64,000 bases of DNA from an uncultured Acidobacteriota bacterium (GTDB taxonomy: Bacteria; Acidobacteriota; Thermoanaerobaculia; Gp7-AA8): positions 1,573,787 to 1,637,786 of the forward strand of contig CAWGHO010000002.1 of NCBI GenBank assembly GCA_963822445.1, given 5' to 3'. This document shows positions 18,001-21,000 of this stretch, one piece after another; the first letter of the stretch is position 1; each line of letters begins with the position of its first letter. A program made the position numbers.

Positions 18001-21000
18001 CTGACGGATGTGCTCACTGCGCATTACGCGCACGGCGCGATCTGCGCGGCGCTGTTCGCTCGTGAACGGACCGGAAAAGGCGCGCGGCTCGAGGTCTCGC
18101 TTTTCGGCGCGGCACTGGCGTCGCTGATCAACGTAGCCCAGGGCTCGCTGGTCACCGGCAACGAGGCGCGGCGCTACGGCAACGCCCATCCGTCGATCGT
18201 TCCCTACCAGGTCTTTCATGCGAGCGATCGCACGTTCGCGATCGGCGGCGGCACCGATCGGCATTTCCGTTTACTGTGCGAGCGGGTGATCGAGCGGCCG
18301 GAGCTCGTGAACGACGAACGCTTCGCGCACAACACCGCGCGCGTGAACAACCGCGACGTGCTCGTGCCTCTCCTCGATTCGATTTTCAGGACGAAGCCGG
18401 CCGCGGAATGGATCGAGCGGTTGCGCGCGGTGTCGATTCCCTGCTCACCGGTCCGCGGCGTGCTCGAGGCACTGCGCAGCGCGGAAGCGGCGCCGCTGAT
18501 CGTCGACGCCGGCGGATTTCGAACCGTGGCCAACCCGGTACGTTTCGATGGCGAGCGCTTGCCGGTGCGACTCGCGCCGCCGAAGCTCGGTCAGCACACC
18601 GGCGAGATCGCGCGCGAGCTCACCACCGCGAATACGACAGAACGAACAGCGCCGCGCACGCGCACAGGACGAACGCCAGCAGGCCGCCGATGAGCAGCAT
18701 GTGTGACGTGCCGCCCGCCTTTGCCTCGCCGAAGCGGCGGAAGATGAAATACAGCGCGATCCCGCCGACGGCCGCGATGAACGTCCCGACGATCAAGACC
18801 ACGATCAGTGCGCGCTGAAACTCCGGATCCATCGCTCGACGGTATCACCGCCGTCATCTTCGATTTCGACGAGACCATCATCGATCTCGAGCCGCAGCAC
18901 ACCGGCGCGCACGACGCGCTCTGCCGCGAAATGGGCTCCGACTACTCGTCCATGCCCCTGGAAATGCGAACCGCCTCCGGATCGCGGATCATCGACGACA
19001 TCCGCGAGATGCGCGCGCACTTCGGGTGGAGCGAATCCGAAGAAGACCTGTTTGCGCGGCGGCAACGGCATTTCGATGAGCTCTGCGCGACCGCACCGCT
19101 CGAGCTGATGCCCGCGGTGCGGGAGACGGTGAACGAGCTGCACGCGCGCGGGTTCCGCCTGGCGATCACCTCATCCGCGGTCGCCGGTTCCATCGACGCC
19201 ATCCTCGTCCGCCTCGGCCTTCGCGACCGGTTCGAGTTGATCGTCGACGGCAGTGAAGTCGTCAACGGCAAGCCCGACCCGGAAGCCTACCTGCTCACCG
19301 CGCGGAAGCTCGGCGTGCCGCCGGAGCGGTGTCTCGTGCTCGAAGACTCGCAGGTTGGCGTGCTCGCCGCGAAGCGCGCGGGCATGTTCTGCGTCGCGGT
19401 TCCGAATCCGCGGGCGCAATCGATTCAGGACCTGTCCGCGGCCGATCGCATCGTCGAGCGGATCGACGAGGTGCTCAGGTTCTTGGCGCCATCGCGCTGA
19501 GCTCAGCCACCAGGCGGATGAGATTGCGGCCATCGTCGTCAGCGGCCTGATATGTGCGGCAGAGCGTCTGGACCTCTTCTTCCTCCTCGTGCGCGGCGAC
19601 GGTGAACCCATCCGCCGGCTGCGCGGGCGAGGACGTCGGAACGCGCCACCAGGAGTCGCCTTTCAAGCGATAGCTGACGAAGCCGCGCGAGCGCGATCGC
19701 CGCGCACCGCCGAGCTGCTCGAGAATCGTCGGCGTCTCGTCGCGATGATCGCCGGCGGCGTTGGCTTTCTGCGCCGCGAGGATCCGCCCGACGAACGTCG
19801 CCATCAGATCCTGCAACCGCTCGTTCGAATCGCCGACCGCCTTGGCGAAGCGCACGCCGGTGTGTGACACCGTGCTCTTGCCGTCACCGGCCTGGTCGCG
19901 CATCGCCTCGCTGCGAATCACCTCGCACACGAACTCGACGTCCGCCCCCTGCCACCGGAAGGAAAGATTGAAGACGTCTCCCGGTACCGGCGCTCCGTAA
20001 TGCTCGATGAGCGCGCCGGTCATGCCGATGTCGAGCACCAGCGCGTTGCCGCCGGCGAACGTCGACAGGATCGGCTTGGTGAGCTTCAGACGCTGGAAGA
20101 CGCGGCGGTCGTCGGTTGACATCTTGTGATGGAAATATATCAGCGGGCTGGTTTTGGTTGCTGGGTTGCTAGGTTACTGGGTTGCTGGGTGCTCCGCCGA
20201 GACGAACGATCGCCAAACCAGCGGAGCACTCAGCAACCCAGCAACTTAGCAACCCAGCAACCCCAAGTGGTAAGCCCTTTGCTGGGGTACATCCGAACGT
20301 CCGTGGCATCGAACAACCCCATCGATCGACGCAGTATGTGGCGCGTCGGGCCGGAGAGCACCTGGACGACTGTCGTCCCGGTCGTGTTCATCATCGTCTC
20401 TCTTCTTTCTCTGGTCGTCTTGCCGCTCGTCGTTTCGAACAAAACCGCCAAGATGCGCCAGGAGATCCAGCGCATCGCCGAGCCTGCGCGCCGTTCCGCG
20501 AACGAGATTCAGACCGGCCTTTCCGGTGAGCTGGACAAGATCATCGCTTATCAGGTCACCGGTCAGGAGCAATATCGCTCGGCTTTTTACTCACTCGTTG
20601 CAAAGCAGGAGGCGAACCGCCGCGCGCTCGCCAGCCTGTTGCCGAAGCTGGACGAAGATCTCCAGCGCGAACTCGACGCGATGTTCGTGCAGAGCAGCCG
20701 CTGGCACAGCGCGGTCGTGAGCGGCGAGTTTCTGACGCGGCAATTGCCGAGCGAAGTCCTGCTGACGCGTCTGTACGAGAGCCACGCCGTCTATGAGAAG
20801 TCGCTCCACGCAGCCTCGGAGCTCGAGCTCTCCCTGCAGATCGGCATCGAGCAGCGCCTGCGCCGCATTCGTGACGCCGAGAAGGTCAACCTCTGGCTGA
20901 CCATCATCCTCACCCTTCTCGCGCTCACCTCCGCGCTCCTCGTCGCCGGGCTGGGACGGCAGATGCGTCTCCTCGCGCGGGAGGCCATGGCCCGCCGCCA

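Follow-up and report, generated by a model that had tools for sequence, protein, structure and literature searches.

A palindrome with tandem-unit arms between a PilZ-like gene and a histidine kinase gene belongs to an abundant class of palindromic repeats in Thermoanaerobaculia

The GGGAATC heptamer repeats of Xanthomonas form 70-75 'convergent' inverted pairs per genome; they are mostly intergenic, lie near gene ends, are rare between divergent genes and have no known function (Rehm et al. 2015, PMC4692102). Polymerase slippage has been given as the reason why heptamer repeats are in excess in bacteria (PMC4692102). These convergent pairs are the closest precedent for the element described here, a 107-nucleotide (nt) palindrome at positions 20156-20262 (E1) of a 64,000-nt stretch of DNA (the window) from an uncultured Acidobacteriota bacterium (Thermoanaerobaculia, Gp7-AA8; assembly GCA_963822445.1, contig CAWGHO010000002.1, positions 1,573,787 to 1,637,786 of the forward strand), where it lies between a gene for a PilZ-like protein and one for a histidine kinase. 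E1 is a member of a class with many copies in Thermoanaerobaculia genomes, a class that adds to the Xanthomonas precedent many units varying from genome to genome: two inverted arrays of 7-10-nt units, the G-rich one coming first on either strand, enclose a unique centre. With moderate confidence we favour the reading that E1 itself is a non-coding, DNA-level palindromic repeat in a permissive gap, built by template switching and slippage, rather than a conserved regulatory site.

The likeness to the Xanthomonas repeats extends to several features. In both cases tandem, G-rich units of 7 nt (there most often about four per array) form two close inverted arrays of the same polarity, and length as well as sequence vary between close relatives; E1 itself has tandem arrays of at least two units within the 7-10-nt range, and its G-rich arrays are convergent. 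Xanthomonas, however, uses one unit genome-wide, which was chosen and studied for its G-quadruplex potential, whereas the present class uses many units favoured by individual genomes, several of them without G-tracts; a single genome-wide unit with a G3 tract and quadruplex potential was not found, and GGG is present in just three of the five E1 units. Furthermore, the stricter arrays are here nearly all paired, unlike those of Xanthomonas, copies occur in frame within Lhr, which has not been described for the Xanthomonas repeats, and the phylum differs. Repetitive extragenic palindromic sequences (REPs) and REPINs resemble the class as short extragenic palindromes forming hairpins of about 100 nt from inverted halves on either side of a spacer, many of them at gene junctions and some translated within genes. 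The halves of a REP, however, fold into hairpins of their own, short and imperfect, and bear a conserved GTAG or CGTC tag, and copies keep the whole sequence, whereas the arms of the present class are tandem arrays that are not self-complementary, most copies are untagged, and copies in the 64 kb of this genome and in relatives share units, not centres. E1 arms show neither self-complementarity nor GTAG or CGTC, and the RAYT gene of the window is flanked by different REPs. Eukaryotic Foldback (FB) transposons, for example Drosophila FB, have inverted arms of tandem sub-repeats, variable arm length and a heterogeneous or absent centre; they measure hundreds to thousands of base pairs (bp) and have target-site duplications and transposase-encoding partners. 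They are an architectural analogue only; the FB size, duplications and transposase partners were not seen here. Replication template switching, a mechanism and not a family, is outlined in three reports as homogenising and expanding inverted-repeat arms when it occurs between them, and as able to create hairpins (PMC8794818, PMC13100816, PMC8604942). It would explain mirrored variants, inward and outward growth of palindromes and inverted gene ends, but the events as outlined in these reports are single and local and would alone give no tandem units, no unit shared by several loci and no G-then-C polarity.

In E1, two 42-nt arms with 93% complementarity enclose 23 nt (Table 1), the coordinates and sequence agreeing exactly with the preliminary description, and the variant unit GGTTGCTA is mirrored across both arms. 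Tandem Repeats Finder (TRF) reports an 8-nt array on either side, with 4.4 copies of GGTTGCTG at 20156-20190 and 4.1 copies of CAGCAACC at 20231-20263; in the 5' arm, G exceeds C by 10. The RNA folds of the two strands reach -84 and -92 kcal/mol (z = -11.9 and -14.8; equalled by none of 200 shuffles) and the single-stranded DNA fold about -50 kcal/mol (z about -12), again unmatched by any shuffle. GGTTGYYNGGTTGYY occurs four times in the window, confined to E1 and E3, with zero occurrences expected. On the plus strand the arm mismatches are two G-U and one A-C, and fold energies are alike on both strands; an attempt to read the transcribed strand from G-U versus A-C mismatches was dropped, as no strand preference emerged. 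The sole gathering-level match of an Rfam 15 scan of the window was a tRNA, E1 giving only sub-threshold matches to generic miRNA-precursor hairpin models; a scan of 20000-20450 for intrinsic terminators returned no site, no T-run follows either E1 arm, and a blastn search of plasmids with E1 found nothing.

The preliminary description had counted four elements of shared architecture in the window. The other three (E2-E4, Table 1) are confirmed, E2 at 45397-45468 and E3 at 50063-50135 by slightly narrower bounds than those of the table, the family is real, and these copies are by no means the only ones, since relatives are plentiful in other Thermoanaerobaculia genomes. For the census, the window was combined with fetched loci of related Thermoanaerobaculia (designated by L and a number, positions within them following a colon) to about 299 kb of DNA, to which this genome contributes only its 64 kb; the closest relatives of the neighbouring proteins are found in metagenome-assembled genomes of Thermoanaerobaculia and Acidobacteriota. 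Hairpins count as long here if their arms reach 16 nt or more and the loop does not exceed 100 nt; of 62 such hairpins, about 23 have tandem-unit arms, which makes about one element per 13 kb. Sixteen inverted array pairs were found, compared with none in shuffled sequence (five shuffle trials), and eight of the ten short-unit arrays detected by script in the window make up the four inverted pairs E1-E4. The G-rich arm is the 5' arm on either strand in 21 of 23 elements and in all 16 array pairs.

Units are 7 or 8 nt long, rarely 9-10 nt. The family GGTTGYY(G) is found in E1, E3, L005, L018, L019 and L022 and at the lhr site in five genomes, and GTAGGCR / CAGTGGG in E2, its orthologues and L002; AGTCTCAG is restricted to L017 (three loci) and GATGGCA to L021 (two loci). 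Further units are AGTCGTT, CAGGGGG, TAGCGGG, AAATGCA, GAATAGGAC and GTTCCTCGGA. The window alone contains at least four distinct units, and AGTCGTT of E4 as well as AGTCTCAG of L017 are devoid of G-tracts. Centres are unrelated among copies with a common unit. A candidate centre motif, AGAACGAAC (found in E4 and L002:2321, and nearly matched in E1 and L001), was discarded, being not enriched (21 occurrences in the window with one mismatch, versus 14.9 expected) and missing from most copies. L012:5848-5987 is an asymmetric relative of the class: its left side has about 2.5 units of AGGCTCAS, its right side five copies of the 16-nt CTCTGAGCCTATGCGC. When viral contigs were scanned twice for three-unit patterns, the same units turned up just as one-directional simple repeats, mostly in low-GC contigs, and no palindromes were found, so that no link to phages emerges; the unrelated viral contigs L025-L030, including giant-virus bins at 33% GC, hold long GGTTGCTG and GGTTGTCG repeats without an inverted partner. 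In the window, a 9-nt 'tandem repeat' called by TRF at 44774-44815 is explained by a Lys/Ala-rich low-complexity open reading frame (ORF) of histone-H1-like composition (44030-44896, minus strand).

Table 1. Position and make-up of E1, its flanking features and the other three elements of the window
Feature	Coordinates	Strand	Sequence or units	Context
PilZ-like gene, 215 amino acids	19475..20122	-		left neighbour of E1
extended -10-like box	20134..20142	-	TGaTATATT	faces PilZ-like gene; 11 nt before its ATG; flanking context
E1 left arm, G/T-rich	20156..20197		units GGTTGCTG, GGTTGCTA, GGTTACTG, GGTTGCTG; unrepeated inner stem GGGTGCTCCGC	
E1 centre	20198..20220		23 nt, cgagacgaacgatcgccaaacca	missing in the L022 orthologous element along with the right inner stem
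E1 right arm, C/A-rich	20221..20262		inner stem GCGGAGCACTC; four CAGCAACC-type units	
sigma54-type -24/-12 box	20268..20283	+	TGGTAAGCCCTTTGCT	faces kinase; 5 nt from E1; flanking context, outside the element
GAF-HisKA-HATPase histidine kinase gene	20303..22294	+		right neighbour of E1; start GTG 20303 or ATG 20336
E2	45394..45469		7-nt units, GCAGTGG in one arm, GTAGGCR in the other	between fpg and a 102-amino-acid gene
E3	50061..50135		8-nt units GGTTGTCS	inside lhr coding sequence (minus strand); translated as ..GCRVVGFSGENTCKPTTGQPD..
E4	55908..56008		7-nt units AGTCGTT	fills the dnaB-nfeD spacer

The history of E1 can be followed in the orthologous spacer between the PilZ-like and kinase genes, which we compared across 14 genomes. 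The closest relative, L022 (84% amino acid identity of the PilZ-like protein), has the element at the identical position and with the same units; its arms measure 31 nt and are 84% complementary, and 29-32 nt of the centre are missing, including the right inner stem. The L022 copy is a decaying and not a maintained structure, because its left-arm substitutions are uncompensated in the right arm and this part of the centre is lost. In L023 (79%) and L024 (77%) the spacer is empty, running from CTTACCAG over 13-15 nt to TATATTT, and altogether it is empty, at a length of about 15 nt, in 11 of the 14 genomes (L003-L006, L009-L013, L023 and L024). L001 (68%) carries an element of the same architecture a few nt off the E1 position, built from the unrelated 7-nt unit CAGGGGG, which is an independent event. 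The gain of E1 dates to the ancestor that the window genome has in common with L022, because L022 shares it and the other spacers are empty or hold an unrelated unit. Between the window and L022, 64 of 75 positions of the E1 arms are identical, compared with 64% of the fourfold-degenerate sites of the neighbouring gene and 6 of 16 positions of the adjacent spacer; this identity, together with the uncompensated substitutions, suggests that the unit sequence is held or homogenised and that pairing is not strictly kept. 'ACCAS' on both sides of E1 was considered as a target-site duplication, yet a degenerate terminal unit is the better reading, and L022 does not show it.

The genes flanking E1 are divergent. 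The PilZ-like protein has no Pfam hit itself; among its homologues, many have PF07238 (PilZ) or bear the name of a PilZ domain protein. N-terminally extended homologues (P0134, P0140, P0145, P0204 and P0227) were inspected as possible read-through of such elements and set aside, the extensions being antisense kinase sequence and short spacers with no repeat peptides. The distances of E1 given in the preliminary description, 33 nt to the PilZ-like start at 20122 and 73 nt to the ATG at 20336, are correct, but the kinase probably starts at the in-frame GTG at 20303, only 40 nt from E1, since the encoded N-terminal peptide, VASNNPIxRRS, is conserved in L022, L023 and L024. The box TGGTAAGCCCTTTGCT is the sole match to TGGYRN6TTGCW in 64 kb, its GG-N10-GC form is kept in all orthologous spacers, and it is identical at 16 of 16 positions in L022; judged by motif and conservation, it is a putative sigma54-type promoter for the kinase. 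TGnTATATT on the other side, conserved in L001, L022, L023 and L024, resembles a promoter of the extended -10 type whose leader would be very short; a scan of 20000-20450 for consensus sigma70 promoters, in which a -35 hexamer was required, called none, TGaTATATT included. E1 sits where these two promoter-like boxes leave about 15 nt free, which is the only slack in a very compact control region, and it lies probably upstream of both transcription starts and, because the boxes are divergent, probably outside the transcripts of either promoter. Neither sigma54-type nor extended -10 promoters depend on -35 or upstream sequence contacts, and for this reason the gap may be a tolerant landing site.

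Elsewhere in these genomes, too, the class turns over fast. L017 is collinear with 38-58 kb of the window (97% amino acid identity of DnaB); E2 and E3 are common to both, E4 is found in the window only, and three AGTCTCAG elements are found in L017 only, at junctions which in the window consist of overlapping stop codons. E2 has orthologous elements in L017 and L020 and an empty site in L018, L019 and L021, and the E4 site is a 15-nt empty spacer in L017 and is occupied by an unrelated REP-like palindrome in L018. What is gained or lost is the entire block of arm, centre and arm, all of which is absent from empty sites. The arms often overlap gene ends and give the stop codon or final residues: one arm of E2 holds the fpg stop codon (45449-45451), one arm of E4 that of dnaB (56005-56007), and the GT2 gene of L017 ends in ..KSQSRKVSESQS*. 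At the convergent NfeD/GT2 junction, the 3' ends and last codons of both genes are mutually inverted copies in four genomes, with four different sequences. This junction has no element in the window (54640-54643) and L020 (6320-6330), tandem-unit palindromes of different units in L017 (6100-6200) and L021 (6215-6320), and REP-like palindromes in L018 (4870-4970) and L019 (6140-6215).

E3 had been described as a copy inside lhr with a unit resembling that of E1, and both statements hold: it lies within the coding sequence and is translated, and at the orthologous site the DNA unit changes from GACAACC[CG] over GGCAACCC to AGCAACCC, the unit of E1, in different genomes. The units at this site evolve in concert and in place; in L020 just one arm is left. 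Across 120 Lhr homologues (P0001-P0120), the linker between LSATQRPLEEVARFLGG and FRPVTI(I/V)DTGEKK has between zero and more than 80 inserted residues, which include peptides derived from tandem-unit palindromes (CQVVGVSGSRVTPPDNPTTGQPDN, KLAARSSQLAG, PLPV..ATGNGQ) and others derived from classical REPs (for example SPLPSGERVRVRG..PLTLALSPEGRGD). The linker (49990-50160 in the window) is a hotspot for varied palindromic repeats of both types, carried in frame. The lhr gene of the window (46254-50802, minus strand) aligns to homologues of about 1500 amino acids in at least five pieces and in differing frames, so that it is either a pseudogene or sequence with insertion or deletion errors. Single frame changes also affect a lactamase_B-like gene (about 51480) and a LigD Prim-Pol gene (about 38910); DnaB, NfeD, Fpg and eight other neighbours are intact.

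How might such elements arise? In the reading we favour, replication slippage of a short unit would create the arms and alter their length, template switching within the palindrome would copy changes from arm to arm and in this way keep the arms alike, and the same processes, or some mobilising activity, would seed one unit at other gene junctions. In E1 and L017:9046 the two arms mirror each other's variant units, and in E4 these are offset by one unit, which fits arm-to-arm copying and slippage; the inverted ends of the NfeD and GT2 genes are what local fold-back or template-switch copying leaves behind. At three to four sites the unit resembles, by eye, the empty orthologous site: TTAGTCG of E4 versus TTAGCCG, AGTCGCAG of L017 versus TAAGTCGCC in the window, GAGACT of L017 versus GAGAC in the window, and CCAGCAAC of E1 versus CTTACCAG. 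E1 would then most likely be a selfish or neutral palindromic repeat. An effect of E1, if any, would be exerted on DNA and not on RNA, because the element is probably upstream of both transcription starts; it could consist in 107 bp of extra spacing or in cruciform extrusion under negative supercoiling between divergent promoters.

Four observations weigh against this reading. The E1 arms are more conserved than synonymous sites, which could mean selection on the unit sequence and not homogenisation; the two promoters are assigned from motifs only; one and the same unit occurs at several non-orthologous junctions with unrelated centres (three loci in L017, two in L021), which purely local processes do not predict and which suggests some copying between loci; and the uniform polarity noted above has no explanation in a model of slippage and template switching. 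A wider proposal would see here an undescribed class of prokaryotic 'foldback' elements of Thermoanaerobaculia, with genome-specific 7-10-nt units, fixed G-then-C polarity and unique centres, spread by a route without transposase (for instance ectopic template switching primed by microhomology, or the templated addition of repeats at breaks), turning over faster than synonymous divergence and repeatedly colonising proteins in frame, as in the Lhr linker. We regard this as tentative, a possibility on which doubt prevails.

The miniature mobile element suggested in the preliminary description is the closest of its guesses. E1 would be one insertion of a REPIN-type or miniature inverted-repeat transposable element (MITE), moved as a single-stranded hairpin by a Y1 (RAYT-like) or other transposase. 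Whole elements are clearly present or absent at orthologous sites, single units occur in genome-specific bursts (AGTCTCAGAGTC at three loci of L017 only, GATGGCAGATGG at two loci of L021 only), REP-like palindromes occupy the same junctions in other genomes, GTAG stands beside the inner stems of E2 and E4, and the window even has a gene for a RAYT-like Y1 transposase (37051-37662, minus strand; Pfam Y1_Tnp, 27.5 bits versus a cutoff of 23). What flanks this gene, however, are classical REPs of its own (GTAsGGCGGGCGTCCCGCC) and not elements of the tandem-unit class; neither GTAG nor CGTC tags E1 or E3, and a single arm forms no hairpin. Copies with a common unit have wholly different centres, neither a conserved whole sequence nor a cognate transposase was recognised in the DNA sampled, and the units at three to four sites resemble the empty-site sequence. 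Nor is a target-site duplication recognisable: no direct duplication of the flanks was seen at sites with a known empty counterpart, while a parent insertion sequence was not searched for genome-wide. Taken together, mobilisation by a transposase seems unlikely to us. We would give still less weight to E1 as a functional cis-regulatory DNA site, be it a binding-site array (a sigma54 upstream activating sequence or an operator for both genes) or a cruciform coupling both promoters. E1 spans about -30 to -135 of the predicted sigma54 start, the range in which enhancer sites usually lie upstream of such a start; its arms have changed less between the window and L022 than synonymous sites have; and at L001:2486 a 7-nt core, ATAGGAC, is kept and two spacer bases vary, much as in a binding-site array. 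The -24/-12-like box is indeed conserved, yet the element is absent from 11 of 14 orthologous promoter regions, with about 15 nt left between the boxes, and the L001 element has an unrelated unit, which speaks against the array of transcription-factor sites considered earlier. Moreover, the L022 copy is decaying (84% pairing, centre gone), the same unit family is found in coding sequence and at gene 3' ends, and a period of 8 nt puts the sites off one helix face. We consider a regulatory site improbable.

The remaining alternative has the elements acting as RNA, as long hairpins for termination, 3'-end protection or cutting by RNase III, as proposed for REPs, with E1 as a leader hairpin or small RNA. 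The folds are very stable, and E2, E4 and many relatives lie just past stop codons or between co-directional or convergent genes, so that the RNA hairpin of the preliminary description is possible for copies inside operons. E1, by contrast, lies between divergent promoter-like boxes and is probably transcribed from neither, no U-tract terminator and no Rfam family was found, the arm mismatches show no G-U bias on one strand, and the substitutions of L022 are uncompensated. An RNA role thus appears very improbable to us, and for E1 the repeat built by slippage and template switching is the reading we retain.

Palindromes of other kinds accompany the class. Long palindromes that are not of the tandem-unit type are found at 53628-53788 and 43460-43527 of the window, L002:1158-1417 and 4445-4516, and L018:3477-3572 and 11692-11788, and one non-tandem family has 46-nt arms starting with AAGGGGAACGACGGGAGGCC... 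REPs of the type GTGTAGTGTGGGCC are common to the window, L017, L019 and L020, and further families are (ATGTGGC/GTAGAGC)AGACACTCTTGTCTG.. and TGTCATCCCGAGCG.., the latter also within lhr of L018. The RAYT-like gene of the window is 60% identical to L017:23191-23868, and REP doublets of GTAsGGCGGGCGTCCCGCC and CCGCCGGGCnnnnGCCCGGC flank it at 37002-37053 and 37689-37816, with a pair of REPs of the same family at 24640-24740. GTAG tags as a sign of RAYT dependence of the tandem-unit elements were rejected, as they occur in E2, E4 and L021:18701 and not in E1, E3 and most others.

At the locus investigated here, the palindrome should not be taken for a regulator of the PilZ-like/kinase pair, as E1 is probably not a dedicated regulator. 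Elements of this class can mislead gene callers, since reading frames run through them: a 232-codon stop-to-stop open stretch spans E1, and a 722-amino-acid kinase ORF starting at GTG 20126 reads through it. Neighbouring genes owe stop codons and C-terminal residues to them, and they insert in frame into a helicase. If the frequency of one per 13 kb holds genome-wide, they would be a major, unannotated part of the intergenic DNA in a widespread group of soil bacteria, and the making of long perfect hairpins by slippage and template switching could be studied on them in nature. Behind the strict polarity and the genome-specific units, both unexplained, there could be a mechanism of mutation or mobilisation that is new. 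Two unexplained regularities, the polarity on the one hand and the sharing of units among copies with unique centres on the other, make the class worth a genome-wide study.

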